A DNA stretch of 64,000 nucleotides from an uncultured delta proteobacterium (GTDB lineage Bacteria > Desulfobacterota > Binatia > Binatales > Binataceae), in NCBI GenBank assembly GCA_963808235.1, contig CAWEEQ010000002.1, positions 64,001-128,000 on the forward strand. Direction: 5' to 3'. The notes beneath the pieces are model-generated. The model saw nothing but the letters and a program-made list of their open reading frames with translations, searched no databases and was not told the DNA's origin. The position numbers were made by a program, and so were the translations under genes. Within the stretch, counting starts at the first letter, position 1. The number at the start of each line of letters is the position of its first letter. This document shows positions 4,406-49,165 of the stretch, piece after piece.

Positions 4406-5274
4406 ATGGCAACACAACGCCCGCCTGATTCGTCCGAGGACGATCTCTCTATTTCGGAGACCGCGGGCCGCGCGCTCGAAGATCTCTACCACTACATGCT
4501 CACCGCCTCCTGGCCGGTGCTGATTGTTCTGATCACCGTTTTTTCGTTCTCGCAAATTTGCTCTTCGCGGCCGGCTACTACTGGGATGGCGGCATCGAGA
4601 ACACGCACTCCGGGTCGTTCTCCGACATGTTCTTTTTCAGCATCCAGACCATGGCGACGATCGGCTACGGCAAGATGGAGCCGATCACGCTTTTCTCCAA
4701 CATCCTGGTTTCGATCGAGGCGCTGTTCGGACTGCTCGGACTCGCGATCATGACCGGGCTGACCTTCTCGAAGTTCTCGCGGCCTACTGCACGGGTCAGA
4801 TTCACCCGCTACGCCGTGATCGGACCGCGCGACGGAAAAACCAGCCTGGCGATCCGGATGGCGAACATGCGCGCCAATCGTATCGTCGAGGCGCAGATTC
4901 ATCTCATCTTCACCCGCCAGGAGATAACTCTCGAGGGTGATTCGATCCGCCGCTTCTATGACCTGACGACGACGCGGAATCGCTCGCCGCTCTTCATGCT
5001 TTCGTGGACCGCTGTCCATGTGATCACCGAGGACAGCCCGTTTTTCGGACAGACGCGCGAGTCGTTGGCTCAAAGCGCGCCCGAGATTATCGTCTCGATC
5101 ACCGGCCTCGATCAGACCTTCTCGCAAACCGTCCACGCCCGCCATTCGTACAAGATCGGTGAAATCGTCTGGGGCGCCCGCTTCGGCGACGTGCTGAAAG
5201 TCAATCCCGACGGCACCGGCTACATCGACTTCTCCCACTTCGACGACATAGTAATGCTCCCCCCAACCCGCTGA
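4406..5274 (+). pseudogene. KirBac-type inward-rectifier K+ channel, frameshifted at a T6 run
   Basis: DLYHYMLTASW is in one frame, while FFSIQTMATIGYG and FSKFSRPTAR are in another. Adding one T at 4539-4544 joins them. Confidence 0.8.
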
Positions 5275-5305
5275 CACGACCAACCCCGCGTGACAAAAGC
5301 CCAAA

Positions 5306-6274
5306 TCAGGGCACTACGGCAGGCGAAGGGGAGATCGGCACGACCCTCTGCGTCGAAATCACAAACGACCCGCCGGGCGCTGGTAGTTTGTTCGTGATCT
5401 GGTCGACCCGGTAGTAGCGGTTCTTAGCAATAAACCTCGGTATCCATGCCAGATCATCGCGGTAGAAGACGGTGTCCTCCGCGCACCGCACAATCAACCG
5501 GTTAATCTCGACGACCTCTCTGCGGCGGAGGTGTTTCATGCGATAGCCAAAATTTTCGAAGGAGAGGTCCGCGCGCTTTCTGTCAATTGTAAGGTCCGGC
5601 CTTATCCGGATTGCCAGATTGGGTGCGAGCGGCACGACGCGACTAACGATGCGCCAGTCTGCGGTTTCTTCTACCGCCACTGGAAAGTCGCTCGTAAAAA
5701 ACGAGTTGTCGTTAAATGGGTTGAGTAAAATATCCCACTTGAAATTTCCAAAGACGGCGACGTGCTGCATCACCGAATTGATGCCGACCGCTTGCGGATA
5801 TTTGGGATCGACCTCGATCTTTATGTCGCCGCTTCGCAAAAGCTCAGCCAACGACTCTCCGCCAAGTTCTTTGGGTGGCCGCGGTATTAATCCCCCTTTG
5901 TCTGCATGAACGGCCATGGTTTCCACCATGGCCCTCAGAGGTTCAGAAAAGACACGCATGCCCGTCGGCGAACACGTAATGACGTAGGCGACGAACCCCG
6001 CTATCGTGCGAATACATTCGACGTCAATCTTGCCTTCGATGAGCCTCTCAAGAGCTGGATTGTATTTCGGCTCGATTGTCCTCAAGAATTCCTCGATCGC
6101 CCGATCCTCTTTTAGATAGGCATTCGTACTGCCGTCATTGATTCTGCAGACGGATTTTGAATTCGGCGTAAACGACTTCAAGTCGCTCTTCCGCATGGCA
6201 TACATTCGGTCGCCGAGAACGGGGGAATAGAAGTTTCTGAGATATACCTGAGAGACGTAGTGGTCGAGCGGCAA
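5306..6274 (-). CDS. DUF4238 domain protein
   Basis: N-terminal HYVSQVYLRNF and internal FFTSDFPV motifs. Lower GC than the flanking genes. Confidence 0.8.
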   Translation of the reverse strand: MPLDHYVSQVYLRNFYSPVLGDRMYAMRKSDLKSFTPNSKSVCRINDGSTNAYLKEDRAIEEFLRTIEPKYNPALERLIEGKIDVECIRTIAGFVAYVITCSPTGMRVFSEPLRAMVETMAVHADKGGLIPRPPKELGGESLAELLRSGDIKIEVDPKYPQAVGINSVMQHVAVFGNFKWDILLNPFNDNSFFTSDFPVAVEETADWRIVSRVVPLAPNLAIRIRPDLTIDRKRADLSFENFGYRMKHLRRREVVEINRLIVRCAEDTVFYRDDLAWIPRFIAKNRYYRVDQITNKLPAPGGSFVISTQRVVPISPSPAVVP

Positions 6275-6462
6275 CTAAGGATCTCCCGTAAACAAGATTA
6301 CGAAACGTGAACTCGACACAAGAGTTTAACCACGAACGGTCAGGCAGCAACCTGGTTACCGGGATCCCGAGATTCGTGCCGGTCTCGCCCGCGCTGGATC
6401 GGACTAGGTGCGGGGCGCAGAGCCGTTCCGGGGTCCTATGTCTGAACATAACTCAGCGCCGC

Positions 6463-6990
6463 TCACTGTCTGGTATCCTTACTGCCGGAATACACATGGA
6501 AGGCGATGCCGTCCCAGGCGTTGTGAATCCCGATGAAGAGCAACAGCAGCACTGCAGCTCCAACCCCAAATAGAGCCTCACGCGTGTAGGAGGGAATCGC
6601 GAATGCCGACCACGCCAGTATTGCGTACGCCAGCAAAGGCAGCATCGCATGAAATAACCAGTCCTCGAACTCCGGCTGATATACGGTTTGCCTCCGCATC
6701 CGTCGAGTTGTGATCGATGCGTACGCGAATCCACCGACGCCGATGAGGCCCCAAACAGATGCTGCGACGATGATCGACGGCCATGGAACCTGCACGAGTG
6801 CCGACAACAGCAACACGGTGCCGAAGTGAACGATCGTCGGCGTCGCAAATGCGGCCCCAGCATCAGCCGCCCGTGGCGAAAGCCTGCTCTGCGCAACCAG
6901 CGTCATCACCACGAACTGCAATCCGATCAGCGCCCCCGCAGCCGACCCGACGATTACATAGAAATTGTCCCATGCGACGAGCTCAGACAT
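6463..6990 (-). CDS. Conserved hypothetical multi-pass membrane protein
   Basis: WDNFYVIVGSAAGALIGLQFVV, about five hydrophobic segments and IGIHNAWD. Confidence 0.8.
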   Translation of the reverse strand: MSELVAWDNFYVIVGSAAGALIGLQFVVMTLVAQSRLSPRAADAGAAFATPTIVHFGTVLLLSALVQVPWPSIIVAASVWGLIGVGGFAYASITTRRMRRQTVYQPEFEDWLFHAMLPLLAYAILAWSAFAIPSYTREALFGVGAAVLLLLFIGIHNAWDGIAFHVYSGSKDTRQ

Positions 6991-7128
6991 ATCGTCATCT
7001 AATAATCTTTCGTGACCGCCATGCGCCAGCGATATCCAGTGGCACGGTGCGCGTCAGAGTACACCCTGCCGATCTTCACCACCCTGACGCAGCGATGCTC
7101 CTTCTTTTCCGCTCCCGACGCCCCTCGG

Positions 7129-7224
7129 GACCGAGAGCAAAAATACCGTCCGCGGGATTTTGCGATTGATCGAGATTTTGCGATTGAATTGAATAGACAC
7201 TGGGTGCAGGGGTCACCCCTGCCG
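7129..7224 (+). repeat. Dispersed non-coding motif A, copy 1
   Basis: GACCGAGAGCAAAAATACCGTCCGCGGGATTTTGCGATTGA...GACACTGGGTGCAGGGGTCACCCCTGCCG. Recurs at 14053 (+) and 19905 (-). GATTTTGCGATTGA is duplicated internally in this copy. Confidence 0.9.
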
Positions 7225-7265
7225 GTCCGTGTTTTAGGTTCAAATGAACTAAAGGAAAACTCGAA

Positions 7266-8153
7266 ATGCGTGTCTTTCTCACCGGTGCTACAGGATTTAT
7301 CGGTTCTGCCATCATTCCCGAGCTGATCAACGCGGGCCATCGTGTCATCGGTCTTGCTCGCTCCGATGCGGGCGCGAAGGCTCTTATCGACGCGGGCGCC
7401 CAGGTGCATCGAGGCGATCTTGAAGACCTGGAAAGCCTGCGCCGCGGAGCAGCCGCCTCCGATGGGGTCATTCACTGCGCCTTTAATCACGATTTCTCGA
7501 AGTACGCGGCTAACTGTGAGGCAGACCGGCACGCCGTCGAGGCTCTCGGCTCCGTGCTCGAGGGCTCTGACCGCCCCTTGATCGTCACCTCCGGGACCGC
7601 AGTCGTCTTAGCGCCGGGCCGCCTCGCGACCGAAGAAGATGCCCCCATTTCCAGCTCCTCCGGCATCCCCCGCAGCGCATCGGAAGAGGCTGTAGCTTCG
7701 ATAGTCTCGCGAGGCGTGCGCGCGTCGGTGATGCGCCTGCCGCAAGTTCACGACCGACTCAAGCAAGGCCTCATCACCTACCTGATCGACGTAGCTCGCG
7801 AGAAGGGTGTCTCAGCGTATGTCGGCGAGGGGCGCAACCGATGGCCCGCGGCGCACGTGCTCGATACTGCCCGCCTCTACCGGCTGGCGCTAGAAAAGGG
7901 ATCTGCGGGAGCTCGGTTTCACGCGGTCGCCGAAGAGGGCGTGCCGCTTCGAGACATCGCAGAAGCAATCGGTCGCCGCCTCAACATGCCGGTAGTCTCC
8001 AAGTCCCCCGAGGAGGCAGCCGATCATTTTGGATGGCTCGGGTTCTTCGTATCTCACGACGCCCCCGCTTCAAGCGCCCTCACCCAGCAACGCCTCGGAT
8101 GGCGCCCCACGCAGCCATCCCTCCTAACCGACCTCGCCCATCTGTCATCCTGA
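7266..8153 (+). CDS. Extended/atypical SDR oxidoreductase
   Basis: N-terminal Rossmann motif TGATGFIG, plus VIHCAFNHDF and GRNRWPAAHV. Confidence 0.9.
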   Translation: MRVFLTGATGFIGSAIIPELINAGHRVIGLARSDAGAKALIDAGAQVHRGDLEDLESLRRGAAASDGVIHCAFNHDFSKYAANCEADRHAVEALGSVLEGSDRPLIVTSGTAVVLAPGRLATEEDAPISSSSGIPRSASEEAVASIVSRGVRASVMRLPQVHDRLKQGLITYLIDVAREKGVSAYVGEGRNRWPAAHVLDTARLYRLALEKGSAGARFHAVAEEGVPLRDIAEAIGRRLNMPVVSKSPEEAADHFGWLGFFVSHDAPASSALTQQRLGWRPTQPSLLTDLAHLSS

Positions 8154-8319
8154 CCGAGACTCACAATGCGAGCAGAGAGAACTGGCTTCTGGCCCCCGGA
8201 CAGCTCCGCGCCAGCGAAGCGGACACCGGTTCCAAGTCGCCGCGTCATTCTGACCGAATCGCTGCGTCGATCCTTTAGATGACCTTGGAGCTGCCACACG
8301 AACGCAAAGGAGTTCTTCT

Positions 8320-8520
8320 ATGCCTAACGAACCCAAGACAGTCATCGTGACCGGGGCTTCGCAGGGAATCGGAGCTTGCATCGTCCGGACTTTTCTCGAG
8401 CGCGGCTACTCCGTCGTCGCGAACTCGCGGAACATCGCAAAATCCGGCGCCTTCGTGCCGTCGGAGAAGCTGGCGCTGGTCGACGGAAACATCGCCGAGC
8501 CGGCGAATCTATGGCGATGA
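8320..8520 (+). pseudogene. Truncated classical SDR (N-terminal ~61 aa only)
   Basis: AAGGAG RBS and VIVTGASQGIG. SDR-like sequence stops at VDGNIAEP, where motif B starts (8502). Confidence 0.8.
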
Positions 8521-8593
8521 TCCGTGGACCTGGCAAAATCGCGCCCGGATAGGTTTTGCCAGATTCTGCGGATTCGCGCCGCCAGAAGCGTTC
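8502..8593 (+). repeat. Dispersed non-coding motif B, copy 1
   Basis: Aligns without gaps to 13762-13853. By hand count 54/59 identical at the left end and about 76/92 overall. Contains GGCAAAA-N15-TTTTGCC. Confidence 0.9.
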
Positions 8594-8810
8594 CGATCGA
8601 CCATCCATATATTTTTGGCGAAGCGCGTGTCGCTCGTGGGTCACCCGGCCAACGGCGTTCTCGAGCCTCAGAGAATTTCACGGCGCGTGACTATAATCGC
8701 CGACGCTTGCAAATGGATTAAGAAATCTGTTGAGATTCTGTGGAACATCGCAACTCTCTGAGATTAATTCGAAGGGTCAAAGCAGCAAGGTAGATGATGT
8801 GGAGGGTGGA

Positions 8811-9077
8811 GTGGAAAACCTAAATCTCGTCCTGCATGAAGGCGACAAGAAAAGGAATATTCCGGCACTGATTGTTGGTGACTTTGACGCGCTGGTCCGC
8901 CTCCGTGATGCGATAAACGTCTTGATCGAAGAACCGGGGCGTCTGCAGAGCATCGGCCTTCCGACGAGCGATTGTGAAGTGCGCATCGAAATGTGCGAGT
9001 CGGATGACGAAGCAGCCTCGCCCGTTGCGGAAATTCTAGCGACCAGGCGCGCCCGAACAAATAATGGAGACGATTGA
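8811..9077 (+). CDS. Small hypothetical protein
   Basis: GTG start after a GGAGG-like RBS, 88-aa ORF with no recognisable motif. Confidence 0.45.
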   Translation: MENLNLVLHEGDKKRNIPALIVGDFDALVRLRDAINVLIEEPGRLQSIGLPTSDCEVRIEMCESDDEAASPVAEILATRRARTNNGDD

Positions 9078-9151
9078 TCGCTGAACATCCCAAATTGCGC
9101 TAGACAGCGGTGTCTCAAGTTGGGTTGGACGAAAACGCCTGCTGGATTACG

Positions 9152-9196
9152 TTCGTAATCAGCAGGTCGCCGGTTCGAATCCGGCGGGTGGCTCCA
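9152..9196 (+). mobile_element. 3' half of tRNA-Thr(CGT): att-site relic of an integrative element
   Basis: TT-CGT-AA-TCAG-CAGGTC-GCCGG-TTCGAAT-CCGGC-GGGTGGC-T-CCA has an intact T arm and CCA end. No D arm or 5' acceptor strand upstream. Confidence 0.8.
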
Positions 9197-9475
9197 ATAT
9201 CAAAAATCATCGGCGGCATAAGTCGGCGAGCGACTCGCGAAGAGGTACTTCGCCATGATTCAAACATCAATGTTCCCGCTTTTGACATCGACGAGGCTCC
9301 CGTTGCTCCCTGCGTGAATCCGGCATCTTGTCGCCCTCCGGCATACACTCCGCGATCTTTGCGTCTTCGCCGGAAACCTATGTAAGCTCGAATCTCTTTG
9401 GAAGATCAGGGCGGGTAACGTTCGCCTGGCGCGGCTGCGATCGAGGCGCCGCGGAAAGGAGTCGATACAGCTCAG

Positions 9476-9940
9476 ATGAGATTTCACCAAGCTCTTACGC
9501 TTGTGCTGACTGCGACTTGCCTGAGCTCGTGCCTGCCCTTGCCACTGCACTATCACACGCGGCCGGATATCTACGGAACAGTTACTCGCAACGGCGTTCC
9601 AGTTGAGGGTGCTAAGATCGGATACTCAGATGATCTCGGCGATAGTCACTGCGATTCCTACGGCGATTCGCACCCGGCAAACGCAGTGTCGGCTAGCAAC
9701 GGTGCGTTTCATATAGAAGGAACCTACTCGTTTTTCCATATCATTTACTTCGAGCCTCACGCCGCTGAATCTGTAAGCGGGCGAATTTGCGTTGAAAGTT
9801 CGGACGGCCAGCACCTCAGCGAAGACTTAATCATGAATGGCGGAACTGGCGTCGGCTCAATCCCGGACAATGCGTCGAGCGACCAATTAATAGTAGACTG
9901 CGATCTCGCAAAAGATAAATGTACAGGCAAGGCGTGGTGA
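9476..9940 (+). CDS. Predicted lipoprotein with a beta-sandwich (carboxypeptidase-regulatory-like) domain
   Basis: Lipobox-like CLSSC after a hydrophobic stretch, then IYGTVTRNGVPVEGAKI...SNGAFHI. AAGGAG upstream. Confidence 0.65.
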   Translation: MRFHQALTLVLTATCLSSCLPLPLHYHTRPDIYGTVTRNGVPVEGAKIGYSDDLGDSHCDSYGDSHPANAVSASNGAFHIEGTYSFFHIIYFEPHAAESVSGRICVESSDGQHLSEDLIMNGGTGVGSIPDNASSDQLIVDCDLAKDKCTGKAW

Positions 9941-10156
9941 AGTACGCCCCCACAGGTTCATGAATTCGTTCGAACCATCCAGTCTGGACGTTGGCCGCCT
10001 TCGATAGTGATGATGCGACCCCCCAGAGCTAATCCAAGGCGATGCTCCGCGGACCTGGGTAAATCGCGCCGAGAGAGGAATCGATCGATTCGTTGACATC
10101 TCCAAAAATCTGGAGACTGAAATGTGGATGACGCAGTCCGATTCGAACTGCTCTCC

Positions 10157-10226
10157 GTCAACCTGTCAACCGGTTGACACCTGAGCGGCGGTTGACAAGC
10201 GGCGGTTGACGCCCTTGGTGGTTGAC
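10157..10226. repeat. Cluster of six GGTTGAC/GTCAACC heptamers
   Basis: GTCAACC at 10157 and 10165; GGTTGAC at 10172, 10190, 10204 and 10220. Palindrome TGTCAACCGGTTGACA at 10164-10179. Confidence 0.85.
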
Positions 10227-10463
10227 AATCAAATCATCGATTCAAACTACGTTCTAGGAGACTCATCGCCACCACTCGGATTTGAATGCCGACGATCGCC
10301 GTTGTAGAGATGCCAACCCGCCCGGCGCGATCTCGGACACGTAAATCCATAGACTGGACACCGGCGTGGCGAACGATCGGTTCATATAGCTGGTCAAGGT
10401 TGCTGGCGCCGCCGTCGCGAGTCATCTCCTCGGCGCACGCTTTCGACGCGATGATCTCGGCGT

Positions 10464-10943
10464 CTAACGGCCGCATTTCGGGCAGCGAACATCTAGCAAG
10501 ACCTGCGGTGGAATACGCAGAATTTCCGCGAGCTCTAGGATCATGCCGAGTCTCCAATTCTCGAGCTGATCTGGGTTCGTCTCTAACTCTTCCTCCACTC
10601 TCGCCCATCGCATACGTTTGAATCTCCCGAACAGTTCTTCGACTGACCAACCTTCGCGAGCCCGGTATTGCCGTATCAACTCGCTCCGCGATGACTGATA
10701 GTCCTCGAAGCACTCGGACCGATTGCAAAAGGCACAAGGCATGCCCAGGAGGTCGAGAAGGTTGATACCTAAGGCGCTGCAGAGCATCTTGACGTTACGC
10801 AAGGCGACAAGCGTGAGAAGCTCATCTGGATAAGATTCGATGTCACAATAAGAATCAATTGTGAGCCCAGAGGCACGGGCCACTTCGATTTCGGATAACC
10901 CGAGCTCTCCTCGGCGCGATTTTATCTGTTCGTTTATCTGCAT
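10464..10943 (-). CDS. Tandem XRE-type HTH protein with two CxxC motifs
   Basis: IKSRRGELGLSEIEVARASGLT and IRQYRAREGWSVEEL repeats, with CAFC and terminal CPKC. Starts 5 nt after the RHS stop. Confidence 0.7.
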   Translation of the reverse strand: MQINEQIKSRRGELGLSEIEVARASGLTIDSYCDIESYPDELLTLVALRNVKMLCSALGINLLDLLGMPCAFCNRSECFEDYQSSRSELIRQYRAREGWSVEELFGRFKRMRWARVEEELETNPDQLENWRLGMILELAEILRIPPQVLLDVRCPKCGR

Positions 10944-10948
10944 TGACT

Positions 10949-13722
10949 CTAGAACACCGGCACTGGAATGAAAGGAATTTCTGGAATTTCGATGGGTGGC
11001 GGAATCGCTGGGTCCATCGGGACAACTGGCACGGTCATGTTGTCGTTCGGTTCCGATACCGGCGGCTTCCACTCCGGCGCATCCCCATTTGGGTCTGTTG
11101 GAGATTGGCCCGGTCCGCAACTGTTCTGATAGGGCTTGCCTGAATTAGGGGGCGACGGCTTGTTTTTGCCCCCGCCGGGGGGTTGTTGATCCCAGTGACG
11201 CCAATGATCGTCGTCCTCCGGGTGCGCGATCCATTTCGTCCCGCCCGGATCGGTCAAATACCACCGGCCGTTAGGAAATTGCTCGGTTGGCCCCCAAGTA
11301 TTAGGATCATATCCGGGTGGTGGCGGAGGATACTGACCGATCCACCAGCCGATTGGATCGTTCCATACCGTCGGTGCATTTCGCGCGTACGCGTATACGT
11401 TGGCATCGCCGCCACGGAACCCAATAGGATCCTGAGATACGAATCGCTGGAAGGTCGGGCTGTAGTAGCGTGCACGGTAGAAGTACAGCCCCGTCCCGTC
11501 ATTCTCGCGGCCAGTAAACTCATAGCTGCTGCCATTGGCCGCGCCACCGACGGTCGTCGCCCCGAATGGCTGATACGTATAACTCGTCGCGACGGTCTGC
11601 GCCGATCCCACCAGTCCGATCGTCGAGCCGAGCGCGTCGGTAAGCAGCGTCGACACGTTGTTGCTGGAGTCACTACGTACGAAATACTCGTCGGTTCTGA
11701 GGCCGGTCAAAAGATTGGCGGTCGGTGTCCCTCCTTGGAGTTCTTGTACAGGATTGAGGCCGTCGTAGAGAAACTGCATGTCCGTCCCTGCGATCGTTTT
11801 ACTCGCGCGTCGGCCGAATGCGTCATATGTAAAGCTGGCGGTCGCCGCACCGCTGATCGCCGTCAGATGGTTGCGTGCGTCCCAAGTATAGGTATTGATG
11901 CCATCCGAAGCGAGATTCCCGTTAGCGTCGTAGCTTAGTGTCGCGCCATTGAACGAGATCATCGCATTGTCCGCGTTGAAAGTGTTGCCGCTGACGGCGG
12001 AGGGCATACCTGTTGACGCCAAGCTCCCGGTCTTTGCCGTCATTCGGCCGTCAGTATCGTACGAGTAGCTCAGGTTGCCCAGGTTCGAGGGCGGGCTCGA
12101 ACAGCTCCCGCCCGTACCGTATGTGAGCGAAGTTACGCGCGAGTCACTGTCGTAGCCGTAGCTTGCGATCACGCCGTTAGGCAGCGTCAGACAGGTGCGT
12201 CGGTTGGCATTGTCGTAGTTCATTCCCACGCTTTGACTGCCCTGGCTGATGCCTGTCAGCCGGTTGCCGTTGTCAAAGGTATACGCTGCTTGGCTCTGCC
12301 CGACCACCTGCATCGTCTCGCGCCGGCTCCGTCGCCGGGATCAATAAAGACCTGAAAGTTCTTCTGTTCGATGTTGCCGAGCGGATCGGTGATGGTGGTT
12401 TGAGTGACATTGCCGTTGCCGTCAGTGACGTAAGAGAACTGTAAAGTGCTGGTGCCGTCAGCGAGTGTCTGTTGCTTTACGCGTCCGGCGGTATCGTACT
12501 GGTTGGTGAAGACGGTGTTCCCGTTCGGGTCCGTCATTGTGAGCACTCGATTCGATGAGTCGTAGGTGTAGCTACTGACGGCGCCCTTGGCGTCAGTCAC
12601 GGTCGCCAAGCGTCCCGAAGAATCATAAGTATAGGAGACGGTGCGGCCAATATTATCTTGGAGCTGGGTAATCCGATTGCTCGAGTCATGCTGGACTGTG
12701 ATCCAGCGACCGTTTGGCGACTGTATTTGGCTGACGTTGCCGTTAGAATCGCGGCTGATCGTTGCCGTGTTGTTGTTGCGGTCAGTGATGCTCACCAGTG
12801 CAGCCTTGGCGGGATTCGTCGTGCCGGTGGAGTTGGGGAAGAGATACTGCGTCTTGTCTCTGAGGGTCAGGGTCCAGCTACTACCGTTCCAGGCGAGCGT
12901 CGATCCGAAGAAGCGTCCCGGCGCCGTGGTATTCTCATACGCGGCGTTCGAATAACCGGTGCCTGACGATGTGCGCTGGTAATAAACGCGTCCTCCGTCG
13001 GGCAGTATCAGATATTGATAAGAGTACGTGCTGGTGTTTCCGACGAGGAACATCTCGTAGCTGTCAGTGCCCCCGATACCAAACGGCCGCGACATATGAT
13101 CTGAAGTCCGGTACGTTCGCGCGAACTGTATCGGGATCACATCCGATAGCATGAGATCAGTGTGGCTCTCGATAAAGAGCCCCGTGCTGCAGTCCACCGG
13201 ATCGCCTGCGTCGCTGCAGCCCGGCGCGCCAGGCGGCGGAGGATTCGGGCTCGGCGCGATGGAGGGGCTCCCCACCATCGCACCCGTAAATCCATAGATC
13301 TGGACACCGGCGTCGGGAACGACCTGGCTGCCGTCCGAAGTGACCTCGCCCTGGCCGTAGATGTACCAACCCGAGGCGCTTGGGGCTGCGTTATAGTTCC
13401 AGAAATCAAAGGAGGTCCCCGCCGGCGCATGGTAGGTATTCGGGTAGTAAAGCTGCGCGCCTATCCATTGACCGTTCGCATTCTCGAAGTAAGAACCACC
13501 GGGCTGAATCGTGAAATAGATCGGTACCTGCACGCCAATTGGCAGAGGAAACGGCGGCTGGTCGATCGGAATCGGCGTGATCGTGACGGTATGAACCACG
13601 TGGCCATACCAGTCTTTGACAATGGTGCCCGGCTGGAGATGCAGTTCCAGACCTGGTAGCAGCGGGTTGCTGACAACTACTTCGGAACTGGTCGGTGAGG
13701 GGATATTCACGGCGTGCGCGGC
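10949..13722 (-). pseudogene. RHS/YD-repeat polymorphic toxin, 5'-truncated and internally broken, with intact core end and toxin tip
   Basis: GDPVDCSTG (DUF6531-like), YD repeats, frame break at about 12328-12354, GLYFYRARYYSP...SQDPIG...NAPTVWNDPIG, then a C-terminal domain with HPEDDDHWRHWD. Confidence 0.85.
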
Positions 13723-13761
13723 GGCGGCACGCGTTCGATGGATTCCGGGTACAATCAGCAG

Positions 13762-13853
13762 GGCGAATTTACGGCGATGATCCGCGGACCTAGCAAAATC
13801 GCGCCTGGATAGGTTTTGCCCGATTCTGGCGATTTGCTCTGCTGAGGGCGTTC
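13762..13853 (+). repeat. Dispersed non-coding motif B, copy 2
   Basis: GGCGAATTTACGGCGATGATCCGCGGACCTAGCAAAATCGCGCCTGGATAGGTTTTGCC..., homologous to 8502-8593. Confidence 0.9.
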
Positions 13854-13939
13854 TCCGGGTCCGCGCGTAATCGTAAATCGCGCGCACACGCGCCTATTTC
13901 GATCAATTCTCCGAGATGTCCGAGAATCGAGAGACTGGA

Positions 13940-14015
13940 TGGTGGAGCAGAACGGATTTGAACCCTCGACCCCTACGTTGCGAACGTAGTGCTCTCCCAG
14001 CGGAGCTACTGCCGC
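13940..14015 (-). tRNA. tRNA-Ala(CGC)-like sequence, full length but degenerate (probable pseudo-tRNA)
   Basis: GCGGCAG TA GCTC CGCTGGGA GAGC A CTACG TT CGC AA CGTAG GGGTC GAGGG TTCAAAT CCGTT CTGCTCC A CCA (76 nt). G3:U70 is kept. Lesions are a C2:C71 mismatch, C in place of the invariant A14, and a G:G pair in the T stem. Confidence 0.8.
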
Positions 14016-14052
14016 AATCTTAGACACCGCGACGCAATTACTATTCTCGCCA

Positions 14053-14133
14053 GACCGAGAGCAAAATACCGTCGGCGGGATTTTGCGATTGAATGAAATG
14101 GAAGGACACTGGGTGCAGGGGTCACCCCTGCCG
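14053..14133 (+). repeat. Dispersed non-coding motif A, copy 2
   Basis: GACCGAGAGCAAAATACCGTCGGCGGGATTTTGCGATTGAAT...GACACTGGGTGCAGGGGTCACCCCTGCCG. Confidence 0.9.
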
Positions 14134-14633
14134 CCCCGCGCGTAGCGGTCTGAATCCGAATCCCAGTAGCCAGCCTACTTCTCCGGATCGCCACGAGACT
14201 TCAGGGCTGAACTGTTCAGCCTTACCCAAATCAAACCCCGATGGCATCATTCCCACGATGGATTGATCCGATGAATCGACATTGTCAGAACCAGATGCGG
14301 ACCTCAGAGGAACCCGGGGAAGTCATGCTCTCGCACGCGCGAGAGTCGCGTCCCGGCAACATTTGTCGCGTCGACGCTCCCCCGCCCTTCCGCAAGGAAC
14401 ACGCTGGCGCAGAATGGTTTGCGACTCCACCAACCGCCGGCGGCGCAAAGATGGCAACCAACGGCAAGGTCGCGAAATCCGCCCCAACACCACTTTTGGC
14501 CGCTTCGGAACAGCTGAGTCCTTGTTATTCGGAGAACAATCCGGGGACCCGCGCTTGTTCACATATACTCGCGAATCTGGGCATTATCAGTCTGCGTCTT
14601 GCGATCGGGGGATTGCCGGCGTCTGGAGACACG

Positions 14634-15749
14634 ATGACCCGAGCTACGACTCGCAAATATCTCATAGCGCTCGCGCGATGGTTCGACACTTCGGCCGGCG
14701 GAACTGGCGCCGCCGACGGTCCACAAAAGACCGATTGGTTCCGATGCATCCCGTTCGTCGCGGTCCATCTGATGTGCCTCGGAATAATCTGGGTCGGATG
14801 GAGTCCGATCGCAGTGGGGATCGCGATTGCGCTTTATTTCGTCCGCATGTTCGCGATCACCGGATTTTACCACCGTTACTTTTCTCATCGCTCGTTCAAG
14901 ACCACGCGCGTCGCGCAATTCGCTTTTGCCGTGATGGGCGCGACCTGCGTGCAGCGCGGAGCGCTCTGGTGGGCGTCGCATCATCGCCTGCATCATCAGC
15001 GCTCCGATGAGCCCGCAGACGTCCATTCGCCGCGCCAGCACGGTTTCATCTGGAGCCACATCGGCTGGATCACTTCGGAGTCGAATTTCCGATCCGAACT
15101 TCGCGTGGTGCGCGACCTGGTGAAATTTCCCGAACTGATGTTCCTCGATCGATTCGACATACTGGTGCCAACGGTGCTCGGCTTCGCACTGTTCGGACTC
15201 GGCGCGTTCTTTGAGCGCGAGGCGCCGGGCCTGCACACCACCGGCGCCCAGATGCTCATCTGGGGATTCTTTGTCTCAACCGTGGTGCTCGCGCACGGCA
15301 CCTTTACGATCAACTCGCTCGCGCACGTCATCGGGCGGCGCCGCTATGAGACCGGCGACGACAGCCGCAACAGCTTCACGCTCGCGATGGTCACGCTCGG
15401 CGAAGGATGGCACAACAATCACCACCATTATCCAGCCAGCGCGCGCAACGGATTTTTCTGGTGGGAGATCGACATCACCTACTACGGTCTCAAGATGCTC
15501 GAAGCGGTCGGAATCATCTGGGATCTCCGTAAGGTCCCGGAGCAGTTGCTCGACGAAAACCTTGTAGACGCGCAGCCTCGCGTGATTCGAGCCGAGATGC
15601 CGGCGGGAATCGAATTGATCGCAAACGTGCGTCGCAGCGCCGACGACGATCGGCAAATCTTTCCAGCGCTACAAGACGCCGCGCTCAAGGCGGCGGCACG
15701 CCCAAACCTTACCGCTGCCGAGCCTGCTGATTCCGACCGGGTCGCTTGA
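14634..15749 (+). CDS. Delta-9-type acyl-CoA fatty acid desaturase
   Basis: His boxes HRYFSH, HRLHH and GEGWHNNHH. GGAG RBS before ATG 14634. Confidence 0.92.
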   Translation: MTRATTRKYLIALARWFDTSAGGTGAADGPQKTDWFRCIPFVAVHLMCLGIIWVGWSPIAVGIAIALYFVRMFAITGFYHRYFSHRSFKTTRVAQFAFAVMGATCVQRGALWWASHHRLHHQRSDEPADVHSPRQHGFIWSHIGWITSESNFRSELRVVRDLVKFPELMFLDRFDILVPTVLGFALFGLGAFFEREAPGLHTTGAQMLIWGFFVSTVVLAHGTFTINSLAHVIGRRRYETGDDSRNSFTLAMVTLGEGWHNNHHHYPASARNGFFWWEIDITYYGLKMLEAVGIIWDLRKVPEQLLDENLVDAQPRVIRAEMPAGIELIANVRRSADDDRQIFPALQDAALKAAARPNLTAAEPADSDRVA

Positions 15750-19904: not shown

Positions 19905-19970
19905 CGGCAGGGGTGACCCCTGCACCCACCGTTCATTCAATCGCAAAATCCCGCGGACGGTATTTTGCTC
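19905..19970 (-). repeat. Dispersed non-coding motif A, copy 3 (inverted)
   Basis: Minus strand reads GAGCAAAATACCGTCCGCGGGATTTTGCGATTGAATGAACGGTGGGTGCAGGGGTCACCCCTGCCG. Confidence 0.9.
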
Positions 19971-20052
19971 CAGGTGATGTCGGTGACGCCGAAAATAGAA
20001 CTGACGACGGCCTATGTGGTATTGAGCTGGATGCTTGCGCTCTCACCCGCAG

Positions 20053-20100: not shown

Positions 20101-21296
20101 TGGGACTCGCGTAATCAGCTTTCGAGCGTGTCAGGATCGGTCGCATTGACGGTGACCTACGACGCGCTAGGCCGGCGGATGACGTCGGCTAACGGGGCAG
20201 CCAACTTAACCTTTATTCACGACGGGGCGTCCGTGATCGGGTCATCGGACAGCGTATCGGGAAACACGTGGAGTTTCATGCCTGGGGGCCTGGCGGGATC
20301 GTTGACCTCCGGCGGAGCAAAAACCACCTGGGTGCCGCTGCTGGATACGGACGGATCGACGATCGCGCTGGTAAACTCCGCCCAGAACTCGCAGCTGGCG
20401 ACTACTTTCACCTATGATCCGTCGGGAGTACCGACCGTGGGCGGCCTCGCGAATTCGTTCCCGTTCCTCTACCAGGGCCTCGAGCATGAGGTCACAGACC
20501 CGGGCCAGCTTGACTTCGAGCCGTCGGGCAACGTGTACAATCCGCAGATCCAGCGCGAGTTGTCGCAGGTCGGCGAACAGGGAATAGGTGGCCCGCCGTC
20601 CGGGGGCGGCGCGGGAGTCGGCGGCGGAGGTGGTCCTGGCAACGGGGGCTTCGGCAACTTTGGGCCGGGACCCGGTCGAGGTCAGACGGGCAACAGCCTC
20701 GGGCAGACCTTCAGCGAACTCGGTACAGTCGCCAGTCCAGCCACTCTGCTTCTGCCGGATGGCTTAGGCTTTCTGACGATCGGCGGGGGTGACAATCCGA
20801 TCAGCATACCCATTTTTGCGATCAGCGATCTGTTCAACCTGTTCGGCTATTCAGCGGCGAACATTCAAAACCATACCAGTTGGATCACGGGCGGAATTCA
20901 AACTGGGACATTTTGGGCGTACGTCTCATCGCCGGCCAGAAATCCGCCGCGACCTTTATCGCGAGGAGCGACGACGCGCCACAGTCCGGCGTCGTCCTCG
21001 CCAGATACATCATGGTGCCATTCGGTCGATTGCCTCAGGATGTGAATCAGCCTCCGGGAAATGGATTTTCTGAAAAAAAAGTCCAGAACTACGTCAATCC
21101 CGACACCGGACAAAGCTTGCATCCAGATCCCACTCATGGATATCCAAAGGGTCCTCATTACGATCTGCACAGTGGCAGGTTGGAACCTAAAGGTAAGATT
21201 AGCTTGAGGCAGTTTTTTGACACGCTACAGTATTGGTCACAGGATCTCCAGCAGTGGATAGAATTAGAAGGTCCAACAGTTCTTCCGGTTGAATGA
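20101..21296 (+). pseudogene. Orphan RHS C-terminal fragment with Ntox37-like tip, frameshifted near 20848
   Basis: Begins abruptly at WDSRNQLSSVSGSVA, which is also in the 22.6-kb fragment. Has TYDALGRR and FTYDPSG. The tip NPDTGQSLHPDPTHGYPKGPHYD is in a different frame. Confidence 0.75.
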
Positions 21297-22562: not shown

Positions 22563-24101
22563 GTGCGGCGTGCGGCGCTATCCGCGAGCGCGGTTACAAC
22601 GGGTGTGGCGGCGAACCCAGTGGCGACACAGTACGGTTATGACGCGGCGTCAAATTTGACCTCGCAGACCTATCTATACAACAATACTTCACTCGGCAAC
22701 CTGACCTACGGCTATGACCCTGACGGCCGCATGGTCGACGAAGGCGGCAGCTTCGCTCGCGTCAATATTCCACCGCTCATTACGGCGAGTTACAACAACA
22801 GAGATCAGATCAACATCTTTAACAACGCAAACGCAGTGTCCGACCCCGCGAGCAATCTGACCCGCGACCCGGCGACGCTGGCGACCTATTCGTGGGACTC
22901 CCGCAATCAGCTTTCGAGCGTGTCAGGCTCGGTCGCGGTGACCGTGACCTACGACGCGCTTAGCCGCCGGCGTCAAGCGCTGTCTGGCCTGCTGACGACT
23001 ACCTACCTTCATGACGGTTCGGCAGTCGTGTTTTCCTCAATTGCCGCCTCGACCAATGACATGCTCATGCTTCCCGGATCGAGCGAAGTAGTAGCGTTCG
23101 CGAACTCGGTTCCCGGAACAACCACAAACTGGGTGCCGCTGCACGATCTGAGTGGCTCGACAATAGGCCACGTCGATTCGACCGGTAGCGTCGCGAACTC
23201 ATTTACCTACGATCCGAATGGAACCCCGACGGTCACCGGCGCGTCGATCCCCGACCCGTATGAGTTCGCGGGCATGGAGTTGGACCCGACTGGACTCTAT
23301 TACGCAGGTGAGTACTACAGTCCGCGGCTCGTACGATCCATCTCGGAAATCGGTCCGACTAGTGCCAGCGGCAGCGGCGGTGGATCGGGTGGTGGCGGAT
23401 CCGGCGGCGGAGGAGGATCTGGCGGTGGCAGCGGGTTTAACCCCAGCGACTTGTCAGAGCTTCCTAGTTTGTCTCCGATGGGTGGTCCAGGGGGTCCCCA
23501 TATCGGTGGTCTGACCCTAAGCCAAGCATCCCGAAACGCTGAAATCGGCCAGATTGGGGGTATTATAGGTGCTATCGTGGGAGCCTCAGTGGGGGCACCT
23601 CTTGCGGGTTACGTGGTGGGTGACCTGATAGTAACGGGATTCTTAGATTTTATCGACCTTTTTGGGGGCAGCGATCAACCCAAGCCTACCCGGAAGCAAT
23701 TACAAATGCCGGGCCCGGTGATAGCCGCAAAAATCGGAGTCAGCGTGGCAAATATGTCTCTGACCCAAAGCGTCCTGGCAGATCCTCCCAGCGACGGCAC
23801 GCCCTTACAGAGCGTTGGCTTCAATCTTCCGGCTCCTGGCTACAACTATTGCGGGCCCGGTAACTACGCTCCTCTTCCGCCCAATGGAGAGAGCGATCAA
23901 TGCTGCCAAGCTCACGATAATGCCTACGATCAGTACGGCCTTTCAGCGGGCTCTGTCTTTCTTCATCCCTTCGGGATCGGCGCGGGCGCGGGCCAGCTAA
24001 CCGCCGACGCGGGCCTGTGTGCCTGCCTGCACGCCCATGTTCGAACAGGCCCCTACGATAGTCTGGTCGGCGGCATAGCTGAGGGTATCTTCTGCCACTG
24101 A
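22563..24101 (+). pseudogene. Orphan RHS fragment with a phospholipase A2-like C-terminal domain (5'-truncated)
   Basis: YGYDAASNLT, YGYDPDGR, TYDALSRR and YEFAGMELDPTGLYY, then a Gly linker, a hydrophobic helix and YNYCGPG...DQCCQAHDNAY. Confidence 0.8.
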
Positions 24102-46934: not shown

Positions 46935-48020
46935 TTACTCGAACATCAGGACCGTGCGCGCGACCTCGCCCGCCTTCATCGCGCGAAATGCTTCGTTGAC
47001 GTCTTCGAGCTTGCCGCGCCGCGTGATCATGTCGTCGAGATCGAGCCGCCCCTGTTGGTAGAGCTCGATGATTCGCGGCATGTCGATGCGGAATCGATTC
47101 GACCCCATGAAGCATCCCTGGATGCGCTTCTCGTAGAGCAGCGAGAAACCGTCAACTTCGACCTTCTGCCCGATCGGAACCATCCCGACAATGGTCGCGA
47201 TGCCGCCGGGAGCGAGCGACTCGTAGGCCTGCTCGGCGGCGACTTTGAGTCCGATCGCTTCGAACGAGTACTCGACGCCGCCGCCGGTGAGCGCGCGGAT
47301 CTCCGCAACCGCATCTCCCTTGGACGCGTCGACCGCGTGAGTCGCGCCGAGCTTTTTCGCGAGTTCAAGCTTGGACGGGAATTTGTCGACCGCGATGATC
47401 ATCCGCGCGCCCGCGATGCGCGCGCCCTGGATGATCGCGAGGCCAACGCCACCCGCACCGAAGACTGCGACCGTCGATCCCGGCGCCACTTTAGCGGTCT
47501 GCAGCGCCGCGCCGACGCCGGTCATCACGCCGCATCCGATCAGCGCAGCGCGATCGAGCGGCACATCGTGGCCAATTTTCACCAGCGCGTTCTCATGCAG
47601 CAGCATCTTCTCGGCGTAGCCCGAGAGGTCGGCGAACTGATTGACCATCTTGCCCTTCTGCGAGAGTCGCGGCTTGTCGTAGGCGCCGCGCTGAGTTGCG
47701 GCCTTGTTCGAGCAGAGGTTCGGATGGCCCGACATGCAATCCTCGCAGTAGCCGCAAAAGACCGACAGGCATGCGATTACGTGATCGCCGGGCTTCAGGT
47801 ACGAGACCTGTGCGCCCACTTTCTCGACGACGCCCGCCGCCTCGTGCCCGAGCACCGCCGGCGTCGGCCACATGTAGAGGCCGTCGACGAAATGCAAATC
47901 GCTGTGGCACACGCCGCTCGCAACCGTGCGGACGACCACCTCGCGTTCTTTGGGCTCGTCGATATCGACCTGCTCGATCGTGAGCGGCTGACCCGGACCG
48001 TGGAAGACGGCAGCTTTCAT
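46935..48020 (-). CDS. Zn-dependent alcohol dehydrogenase (paralog 2)
   Basis: GVCHSD, LGHE, CGYCEDC..C, GCGV and GAGGVG. Confidence 0.93.
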   Translation of the reverse strand: MKAAVFHGPGQPLTIEQVDIDEPKEREVVVRTVASGVCHSDLHFVDGLYMWPTPAVLGHEAAGVVEKVGAQVSYLKPGDHVIACLSVFCGYCEDCMSGHPNLCSNKAATQRGAYDKPRLSQKGKMVNQFADLSGYAEKMLLHENALVKIGHDVPLDRAALIGCGVMTGVGAALQTAKVAPGSTVAVFGAGGVGLAIIQGARIAGARMIIAVDKFPSKLELAKKLGATHAVDASKGDAVAEIRALTGGGVEYSFEAIGLKVAAEQAYESLAPGGIATIVGMVPIGQKVEVDGFSLLYEKRIQGCFMGSNRFRIDMPRIIELYQQGRLDLDDMITRRGKLEDVNEAFRAMKAGEVARTVLMFE

Positions 48021-48076: not shown

Positions 48077-49165
48077 CTAGTTGAACATCAGAACCGTGCG
48101 CGCGACCTCGCCCGCCTTCATCGCGCGAAACGCCTCGTTGACGTCTTCGAGTTTTCCGCGGCGGCTGATCATCTCGTCGAGTTTGAGACGCCCCTGCATG
48201 TAGAAATCGATGTAACGCGGCATGTCGATGCGGAAGCGGTTGGAGCCCATGTTCGACCCCTGCAGTTTGCGCTCGGTAAGAAACATGTAGCCGTCGAGTT
48301 CGACCTTCTGCCCGACCGGGATCATGCCGATCACGGTTGCCATGCCGCCGGGCTTGAGCGCGTTGAACGCCTGCTCGGCGACCTTCTTGAGTCCGATCGC
48401 CTCGAAGGAGTAATCGACGCCGGCGCCGCCGGTGAGCTTGCGAATTTCATCGACTGGCTCGCTGTTCGATGCGTCCACGGTGTCGGTCGCGCCGAGCCTT
48501 TTCGCCATCGCGAGCTTTCCCTCGAACATGTCGATCGCGATTATTTTGCGCGCGCCGGCAATTCGCGCGCCCTGGATTGCGGCCAGTCCTACTCCGCCGG
48601 CGCCGAACACCGCGACCGTGGAGCCCGGCTCGATCTTCGCCGTATTGAGCACCGCGCCGACGCCCGTGGTCACGCCGCATCCGATCAACGCCGCGCGATC
48701 CAGCGGCAGGTCCTCACGGATCTTCACGACCGCATTCTCATGCAGCAGCATCTTCTCGCAGTACGACGAGATGTCCAGGAACTGATTGACCAGCTTGCCC
48801 TTCTGCGAGATGCGCGGCTTGTCGGCGGGGTCGCGCTGAGTTGCCTTCTTGTTGGAGCATCGGTTCGGATGGCCCGACATGCAACTCTCGCAATTGCCGC
48901 AGAAAACCGACAGGCAACAGATGACGTGGTCGCCCGGCTTGACGTAGGTGACCTGGCGGCCGACCTCTTCGATAATTCCGGCGGCCTCGTGGCCGAGCAC
49001 CGCGGGTGCGGGATATGGGTAGAAACCGTCGACGAAATGCAGGTCGCTATGGCAAACGCCGCTGGCGACAGTTTTGATCAGGACTTCGCGATCCTGCGGC
49101 TTGTCGAGCTCGACGTCCTCGATACTCAGCGGCAGTTTGGGCCCATGGAAGACAGCGGCTTTCAT
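48077..49165 (-). CDS. Zn-dependent alcohol dehydrogenase (paralog 1)
   Basis: Same motifs as the neighbour. The C-terminal RRGKLEDVNEAFRAMKAGEVARTVLMF is identical. Confidence 0.93.
   Translation of the reverse strand: MKAAVFHGPKLPLSIEDVELDKPQDREVLIKTVASGVCHSDLHFVDGFYPYPAPAVLGHEAAGIIEEVGRQVTYVKPGDHVICCLSVFCGNCESCMSGHPNRCSNKKATQRDPADKPRISQKGKLVNQFLDISSYCEKMLLHENAVVKIREDLPLDRAALIGCGVTTGVGAVLNTAKIEPGSTVAVFGAGGVGLAAIQGARIAGARKIIAIDMFEGKLAMAKRLGATDTVDASNSEPVDEIRKLTGGAGVDYSFEAIGLKKVAEQAFNALKPGGMATVIGMIPVGQKVELDGYMFLTERKLQGSNMGSNRFRIDMPRYIDFYMQGRLKLDEMISRRGKLEDVNEAFRAMKAGEVARTVLMFN

Follow-up and report, generated by a model that had tools for sequence, protein, structure and literature searches.

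Islands that target transfer RNA (tRNA) genes by means of tyrosine integrases are bounded by direct repeats of the tRNA 3' end, grow by tandem accretion, include cis-mobilizable elements and leave relics devoid of an integrase. The mycobacterial prophage phiRv1 integrates into a dispersed repeat, REP13E12, and the repetitive extragenic palindromic (REP) sequences and their hairpin-forming doublets (REPIN) are moved by REP-associated tyrosine (RAYT) transposases. In Dehalococcoides, several tandem islands lie within ~100 kb downstream of ssrA and are bounded by ssrA or by 20-bp direct repeats of its 3' end; the serine recombinase DsiB (~540 residues) is encoded on the reverse strand next to attL, and some islands without an integrase were read as cis-mobilizable elements joined by accretion (PMC3146451). 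Here we analyse positions 13762-14133 of a 64,000-nucleotide (nt) stretch of DNA (hereafter the window) from an uncultured bacterium whose relatives are recorded as Candidatus Binatus or Binataceae; at these positions a degenerate tRNA-Ala(CGC) gene is flanked by two repeated motifs, B and A. An earlier note on the window had read A, the tRNA and B as one mobile unit resembling a miniature inverted-repeat transposable element (MITE) or a short interspersed nuclear element (SINE), or else as a dispersed attachment junction mobilised in trans. We conclude that 13762-14133 is probably a secondary juxtaposition of two unrelated repeats, a relic attachment-site module (B, spacer and tRNA) and a REP-like repeat (A). 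The original claim is thus corrected: the locus holds no tRNA-bearing MITE or SINE, and what is seen are island scars beside a REP-like repeat. Its parts are as follows.

13762-13853, minus strand: motif B, the distal part of a segment called M2, with the palindrome TCCGCGGA intact at 13781-13788 (centre 13783/13784); delimited by copy boundaries.
13854-13939, minus strand: spacer, consisting of proximal M2, a segment called M1 (~13900-13933) and a 6-nt linker after the discriminator base of the tRNA; aligns with 38 copies.
13940-14015, minus strand: decayed extra tRNA-Ala(CGC) with three private lesions (ARAGORN, Rfam, alignment).
14016-14045, minus strand: native upstream region of the tRNA, 30 nt, with a -10-like TAGTAAT (alignment with nine orthologous tRNA-Ala loci).
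14048-14227, plus strand: motif A in its long form, with the hairpin GCAAAAT..ATTTTGC, the hairpin GCAGGGGTCACCCCTGC and a conserved tail (25 long copies, 50 hairpin cores).

The ssrA islands of Dehalococcoides are the closest described system: tandem islands stand behind one small-RNA gene, with a reverse-strand serine recombinase at one end. The two systems differ in the anchor, which is a tRNA gene (Ala, Met or Val-like) in Binatus and the transfer-messenger RNA gene in Dehalococcoides, and in the repeat, ~200 nt as against 20 bp. Relative to the RNA gene, the break associated with the recombinase is ~160 nt downstream, within a conserved trailer, whereas that of Dehalococcoides lies in the T-loop; the partner gene of the Binatus recombinase is a DUF2924 gene, and the Binatus system is known from the sequences of an uncultured lineage alone. 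Like the islands of tyrosine integrases, the Binatus arrays have repeats of a tRNA 3' end that bound variable DNA, relic copies without an integrase and, in one place, a tyrosine integrase beside a tRNA fragment. Unlike them, the repeat runs ~180 nt past the tRNA, the recombinase that tracks its boundary is of the serine type, and the arrays of five relatives contain no tyrosine integrase. The likeness to phiRv1 is that of a large serine recombinase element with its target inside a multi-copy chromosomal repeat; REP13E12, however, is not tied to tRNA genes, and the Binatus copies are only putative targets.

The whole unit was compared with the genome of the window (G000; four contigs, 4.59 Mb, 93% complete) and with 30 relatives, and B plus spacer was searched for in 40 congeners, a tally that takes in the unpublished genome G018. 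No match spans the junction between the tRNA and motif A in the own genome or in the 30 relatives. The unit is thus single-copy, and its reading as one repeated element is not borne out. Its two parts are also distributed differently in the own genome, most copies of A being found on the large contig C4 and most of B on C1 and C2.

B, spacer and tRNA, in contrast, belong together. The module consists of 30 nt upstream of the tRNA, tRNA-Ala(CGC), the 6-nt linker, M1 (~40 nt) and M2 (~140 nt, ending in B), ~285 nt in all; numbered from the outer end of B (GGCGAAT, position 1), it takes up unit positions 1-284. The own genome contains 11 copies of B or of B plus spacer, together with one spacer/tRNA fragment. 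In the window, a repeat scan gave B again at 8502-8593, as the earlier note had seen, with 83% identity to 13762-13853, and a weaker match at 10024-10091. The query was matched in 18/18 sampled congeners, with unit positions 1-284 at 83-85% identity in many of them. B plus spacer was found in 32 of the 40 congeners, with one to nine copies each, clustered and in one orientation downstream of a tRNA. In a pattern scan of the genomes of ~185,000 species, the module occurred only in records of Candidatus Binatus, Binataceae and 'uncultured delta proteobacterium' metagenome-assembled genomes (MAGs), apart from two small contigs labelled otherwise. Among plasmid and phage collections, only the tRNA part of the unit was matched. 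Among the publications on Binatota and tRNA that were listed, none dealt with repeats to judge by title and abstract opening.

The module begins 6 nt past the discriminator base of the tRNA. The intact genes that precede it are tRNA-Ala(CGC), tRNA-Met(CAT) in the own genome and G037, and a tRNA-Val(CAC)-like gene in G009; it also stands behind tRNA-Ala 3' fragments of ~7-49 nt, and M1 alone follows tRNA-Ala in G015 and G008. The identity of the window module to the copy on C1 of its own genome is 82%, and that to copies of other species 85%. Since the window module is about as distant from the C1 copy as from other species, it is not a recent local duplicate.

The copies form arrays: eight over 90 kb in G003, five in G012, four in G013, and at least four in each of G048 and G052. 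Upstream of tRNA-Ala(CGC), the flank shows conserved synteny in G006, G003, G012 and G013 (8.4 kb at 88% identity between G006 and G003). In the own genome this flank maps to C1 and not to the window, and the C1 locus, which carries the intact tRNA-Ala(CGC) that the earlier note had proposed to look for (C1:169430-169503), is therefore the orthologous one. For the flank beyond the last B copy of G006 and of G003, the match in the own genome is C1:188869-189512, which directly follows a B remnant (C1:188780-188829) 19 kb downstream of the true tRNA. At the C1 locus (19 kb), in G003 and in G006, repeats of the tRNA 3' end in the same direction thus enclose variable DNA up to a conserved flank. 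This arrangement indicates, on comparative grounds, that tandem integrative elements at a tRNA gene left the module copies behind as direct repeats.

In ~30 congeners, homology at the tRNA-Met locus ends at or within ~14 nt of the tRNA 3' end, and M1-M2 is present in only a few genomes. The ancestral flank of this locus is at C4:3146641, on a different contig, where no tRNA fragment adjoins it, and is uninformative as to which side carries M1-M2. We also considered G017 as an empty tRNA-Ala site on account of the terminator-like hairpin behind its tRNA, but dropped it as the flank is rearranged relative to the own genome. The first open reading frame (ORF) beyond B points, by our tally, in the same direction in ~13 cases and in the opposite direction in 16. 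The idea that B drives cargo genes fails on this orientation, and an integron cassette array was rejected for the same mixed orientation and because no integrase was found in the arrays of five relatives. As to cargo, the G006 island behind tRNA-Ala (L132, C1:564000-583999) holds a serine recombinase, a type I restriction-modification system and a ThiF/multiubiquitin gene pair, a defence-type content. An Rhs fragment follows a B copy in G013 too, and duplicated Rhs fragments were found at window 12322-13721 and C2:224356-225755 and at window 20101-20178 and 22893-22970, with 91% and 88% identity, respectively. The Rhs pieces appear to travel with the islands.

The boundaries of B were analysed in our own tabulation of 74 distinct copies. 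The outer boundary at GGCGAAT, noticed in the window beforehand, was confirmed, with 43/74 copies starting at unit positions 1-5. A second sharp boundary was found at positions 24-25, where 18/74 copies start. This break falls within the palindrome TCC-RY-GGA (TCCGCGGA in the window), and beyond the palindrome five junctions read C-Y-G-Y-R-R. Genes of one homologous family of large serine recombinases, scored within 2.5 kb beyond the B copies of the relatives, stand beside 7/16 copies broken at 24-25, beside none of 37 intact copies and beside 2/12 others; three of the seven positive loci (L065, L082, L094) came from the blind pattern scan. In every case the recombinase gene is encoded on the opposite strand, and 32-621 nt separate its 3' end from the break. 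A DUF2924 gene often follows behind it; the recombinase copies are 56-90% identical among themselves. In G046, three copies on one contig, including one at the true tRNA, all end at position 25. A stand-alone distal half-site of B was found neither on that contig nor at the other loci searched, apart from one doubtful match in G006 (L049). The absence of separated half-sites and the common end of the G046 copies at 25 fit elements that each carry a copy of the module. A further observation concerns an ORF of ~330 amino acids with a Crp-type helix-turn-helix (HTH) domain, 91-95% identical in three genomes (L011, L038, L020), which abuts the outer boundary of B on the opposite strand; in two of the three cases it stands at the position-25 break.

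These results suggest that B holds the target site of the recombinase, made up of its outer 24 nt and the palindrome, and we take the palindrome as the putative core of the attachment site. The crossover may occur there or inside the tRNA. In the explanation that we favour, a large serine recombinase would cut at the centre of TCC-RY-GGA, 23/24 nt inside B. On this view the outer 24 nt of B would form the distal half-site, and the sharp end at GGCGAAT would be accounted for. Each element would carry its own tRNA'-M1-M2 beside the recombinase gene, and integration would leave a repeat behind. The evidence tying a large serine recombinase to a tRNA-trailer repeat in Binatus is comparative.

The window copy differs in its setting from the copies in the arrays, and the features around it are as follows.

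5275-14545, no strand: mosaic insertion of 9.3 kb, from a conserved gene to the desaturase promoter (empty site in G006, G003 and G017).
7129-7224, plus strand: copy of motif A (repeat scan, copy alignment).
8502-8593, minus strand: solo B, truncating a short-chain dehydrogenase gene (8320-8520) (repeat scan, alignment).
9152-9196, plus strand: 3' fragment of tRNA-Thr(CGT), 45 nt, an attachment-type scar (prompted by loose ends in the contig alignment).
10024-10245, minus strand: partial B, M1 and a degenerate tRNA-like 3' end, followed by TGTCAAC/GTTGAC iterons (repeat scan, alignment).
19905-19975, minus strand: inverted copy of motif A, downstream of katG (repeat scan).

In G006, G003 and G017, the gene matching window 4476-5274 stands ~100 nt from the desaturase promoter, and the insertion 5275-14545 is missing from all three relatives checked. 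An empty site, which the earlier note had suggested seeking, was thus found. All B copies of the window lie in the insertion, as do two of the window's three A copies. The insertion contains a DUF4238 gene, an A copy, an epimerase gene, the dehydrogenase gene truncated by the solo B, the tRNA-Thr(CGT) fragment, the partial module with TGTCAAC iterons, an HTH gene, Rhs fragments, the module with the decayed tRNA and the long A copy. The mosaic pieces have scattered homologues in relatives, some of which adjoin B copies there. To the right of the unit stand core genes (desaturase, CMAS, Fur and KatG) that are syntenic in relatives and far from tRNA-Ala. The window module lies in island debris inserted at a non-tRNA site.

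The last bases of the insertion, 14540-14549, read TCCGGGGACC, one letter off the B palindrome region TCCGCGGACC. They could be a half-site of the event that placed the mosaic at its present site.

Iterons of the type seen in the partial module were also noted elsewhere. Four to six TGTCAAC/GTTGAC iterons stand beside a degenerate tRNA-like 3' end (the TGGATGAC... class) at window 10161-10245 and at C2:217186-217285, and this class was found at 78-96% identity in five relatives (G006, G003, G014, G051 and G048). The 7-mer TGTCAAC has a genome-wide frequency of 0.046 per kb. The iterons were considered as general arm sites, but they stand beside only three of the fragment copies counted and mark one subclass.

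It is worth noting that several facts weigh against the explanation by a serine recombinase. The large serine recombinase domain (PF07508) was not detected in the own genome, which is 93% complete; the link to the recombinase therefore rests wholly on relatives, and the module is therefore a relic here. A recombinase beside the copies, which the earlier note had recommended seeking, does exist in relatives, as a large serine recombinase at the B break; this type was not detected in the own genome. Some loci in the adjacency count were obtained after the recombinase had been noticed. Beyond position 1, flanks differ among the 43 copies whose palindrome is intact, which the break at 24/25 leaves unexplained, so that a second or older process must set the position-1 boundary. 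The retained tRNA fragments, from ~7 to 49 nt, are untidy for a single site-specific crossover. A tyrosine integrase stands beside a tRNA-Ala fragment with M1 on C2, which indicates that tyrosine integrases use tRNA-Ala too. The window copy keeps a whole tRNA and 30 nt upstream of it at a non-tRNA site, a state that simple site-specific integration does not predict. Finally, the 9.3-kb difference could in principle be a deletion common to the three relatives.

A further step may be considered, although we regard it as doubtful. M1-M2 might be a self-renewing landing pad, if the serine-recombinase elements of Candidatus Binatus carried a copy of the ~180-nt trailer as one arm of their attP, so that integration at the B palindrome would rebuild an intact target at the far junction. 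If this were true, open-ended island arrays would grow behind tRNA-Ala, tRNA-Met and tRNA-Val genes, and the tRNA would never be cut. To our knowledge, tRNA-anchored accretion by a landing pad has not been described, a point on which no literature search was made. The value of the present work is modest: an integration hot spot of an uncultured soil lineage (Binatota) has been mapped for the first time, together with its likely recombinase, and a precise, testable target is proposed, namely a near-palindrome of 12 bp within a conserved ~180-nt trailer. Sites of this sort are an aid in delimiting mobile islands in MAGs, and genome engineering can make use of large serine recombinases whose targets are defined.

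The origin of the many intact copies, which the break at 24/25 does not account for, brings in tyrosine integrases as a serious alternative. Tyrosine integrases targeting the tRNA would have multiplied the repeats, with tRNA'-M1-M2 as an arm of attP and a crossover inside the tRNA, and the serine-recombinase elements would be later squatters landing on B. The tyrosine integrase on C2 (C2:195168-196409) indeed abuts a 35-nt tRNA-Ala fragment and M1 (C2:195068-195144, with M1 at C2:195103-195144), its homologues stand beside various tRNA genes in 11/20 loci, and several fragments of 33-36 or 49 nt fit crossovers near the anticodon arm. These homologues, however, are never beside the module, and the integrase-adjacent copy on C2 lacks M2 entirely. 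Within 2.5 kb, a tyrosine integrase was found at only 1/37 intact copies. PF00589 (Phage_integrase) had no match inside the arrays of five relatives, the nearest being 63 kb past the last copy in G003. In addition, squatters landing on B would leave stand-alone distal half-sites, of which the loci searched gave no clear case beyond the doubtful L049. As a full account of the repeats, we therefore judge this alternative unlikely.

It is much less probable that M1-M2 is a structured RNA, either a 3' trailer or a small RNA made with the tRNA, spread by duplication of tRNA genes and conserved for an RNA function. Such a role would agree with the fixed start 6 nt past the tRNA end at three different tRNAs, and the inverted repeat CGCGGACC...GGTCCGCG shows compensating changes in three copies (L020, L011 and L016). 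The same repeat is nevertheless uncompensated in ~8 copies, RNAalifold on 38 copies gave three pairs only and no covariation, and the two sequence classes differ in the supposed GCAAAA/TTTTGC hairpin. Our own helix scan of the module gave ambiguous GC-rich stacks only. Rfam, at E values up to 10, matched the tRNA of the unit and nothing in M1-M2, and most copies have no promoter-bearing tRNA.

Motif A is a member of a REP/MITE-like family and is unrelated to the module. BLAST against the own genome gave 25 copies of at least 60 nt, mostly on C4, and many further matches to the terminal hairpin alone; the hairpin core GCAGGGGT[CG]ACCCCTGC occurs 50 times. The repeats of A at 7129 (direct) and 19905 (inverted) reported earlier were recovered by the repeat scan. 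A sharp end of A at CCCCTGCCG, claimed on the basis of the window, did not hold: 22/25 long copies go past it, 17, including the window copy, extending through CCCCGCGCGYAGCGGTC and five bearing a variant block, and only three stop there, two of which are the other window copies. Similarity with the window reaches 14227 in two copies (C4:157289-157465 and C4:2511197-2511364). Across the genus, the hairpin part of A is highly repeated. Like REP and REPIN elements, A has a short GC-rich hairpin present ~50 times, and some copies have an inverted second hairpin further upstream. It differs from them in that its long form (~100-180 nt) bears extra conserved modules, and in that the Y1 transposase (PF01797, RAYT) was not detected in the own genome, 93% complete as it is.

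That A, tRNA and B are a single non-autonomous, MITE- or SINE-like element moved in trans is very improbable. Each of the three parts is indeed repeated somewhere, and A and B share a core, GCAAAATC.CGC...TTTTGC. Of this sharing, the form GCAAAATC[CG]CGC was verified in three B and eight A copies; as nine of its 20 occurrences in the genome (base composition predicts ~1.3) lie elsewhere, it is not specific to A and B. The combination was found once in the own genome and in 0/30 relatives. Neither terminal inverted repeats nor a target duplication were seen by eye in an alignment of 11 copies with their flanks, no dedicated search for terminal repeats having been made, and neither a reverse transcriptase (PF00078) nor the Y1 transposase was detected in the own genome. 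The separate distribution of A on C4 and of B on C1 and C2 also speaks against one element. A SINE-like retrocopy would not be expected to include the 30 nt upstream of the tRNA, which do not look transcribed, and the CCA of the window copy is no sign of one, as CCA is encoded in several orthologous tRNA-Ala genes of relatives too. The other idea of the earlier note, a dispersed attachment junction mobilised in trans, comes close to our reading of B, spacer and tRNA and goes wrong in including A, an unrelated dispersed repeat.

A and B do stand side by side a second time in the own genome, 25 nt apart, at C4:160708-160905. This pair has a different relative orientation and no tRNA. With 25 long A copies and 11 B copies in 4.6 Mb, chance seems insufficient to account for two such adjacencies.

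The tRNA in the window was called by ARAGORN as tRNA-Ala(cgc) at 13940-14015 on the minus strand, and the degenerate state ascribed to it earlier, with three lesions, was borne out. It scores 45.3 bits with the Rfam tRNA model, as against 67 bits for the intact C1 copy and for the orthologue of one relative. The second tRNA-Ala(cgc) of the own genome, on C1, has a perfect cloverleaf, and nine aligned tRNA-Ala copies of relatives are identical to it across the whole tRNA. The intact cloverleaf and the invariant bases that characterise a functional tRNA are broken in the window copy by a C2.C71 mismatch, by C14 in place of A14 and by a G51.G63 mismatch (changes at positions 2, 14 and 63), none of which is present in the C1 copy or in the nine relatives. 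The G3:U70 alanine identity pair is kept. Homology to the true tRNA locus ends 30 nt upstream of the tRNA, which suggests that the likely -35 box has been lost, and a promoter scan of window 13500-14400 gave no promoter-like sites. Short contigs of four public DNA runs were aligned to the region. Among the differences listed, none lies in the tRNA, which neither confirms nor corrects its bases, and none is a joint across the island. We conclude that the window tRNA is a decaying spare copy of tRNA-Ala(CGC). That it is a working second gene whose lesions are assembly errors is hardly credible: ARAGORN and Rfam still call it and its identity pair is intact, but three changes at structurally critical positions are private to it, its likely -35 region is replaced, and an intact copy exists on C1.

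Some minor observations concern other tRNA-like sequences. The true tRNA-Ala locus (C1:169094-169503) has a 43-nt, hairpin-containing insert between the tRNA and M1 that was not seen in relatives. Part of the same locus, namely ~100 nt upstream and tRNA positions 1-55, is duplicated locally in tandem (C1:169094-169247), and the notion of a recurring boundary 30 nt upstream of the tRNA was dropped for this reason. At C2:185931-186014, ~100 nt before a tRNA-Ala fragment with the module, a weak match to the tRNA model (30.4 bits) resembles a relic of tRNA-Leu(TAA). ARAGORN also called a tRNA-Ser(tga), with its anticodon at position 32, at 15629-15718 on the minus strand of the window; it falls where the desaturase ORF ends and the CMAS ORF begins, lies below the Rfam gathering score and is probably a false call.

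Two observations concern protein-coding genes of the window. The desaturase ORF of 502 amino acids is over-extended (at window 14241-14640): its homology to relatives starts near 14552, at a conserved upstream block TGTTCAC...GGGCATTATCA, and the start codon is likely to be near 14634. Further along the window, 46936-47598 and 48078-48743 are tandem paralogous segments with a period of ~1.14 kb and 74-83% identity, and are probably duplicated genes.

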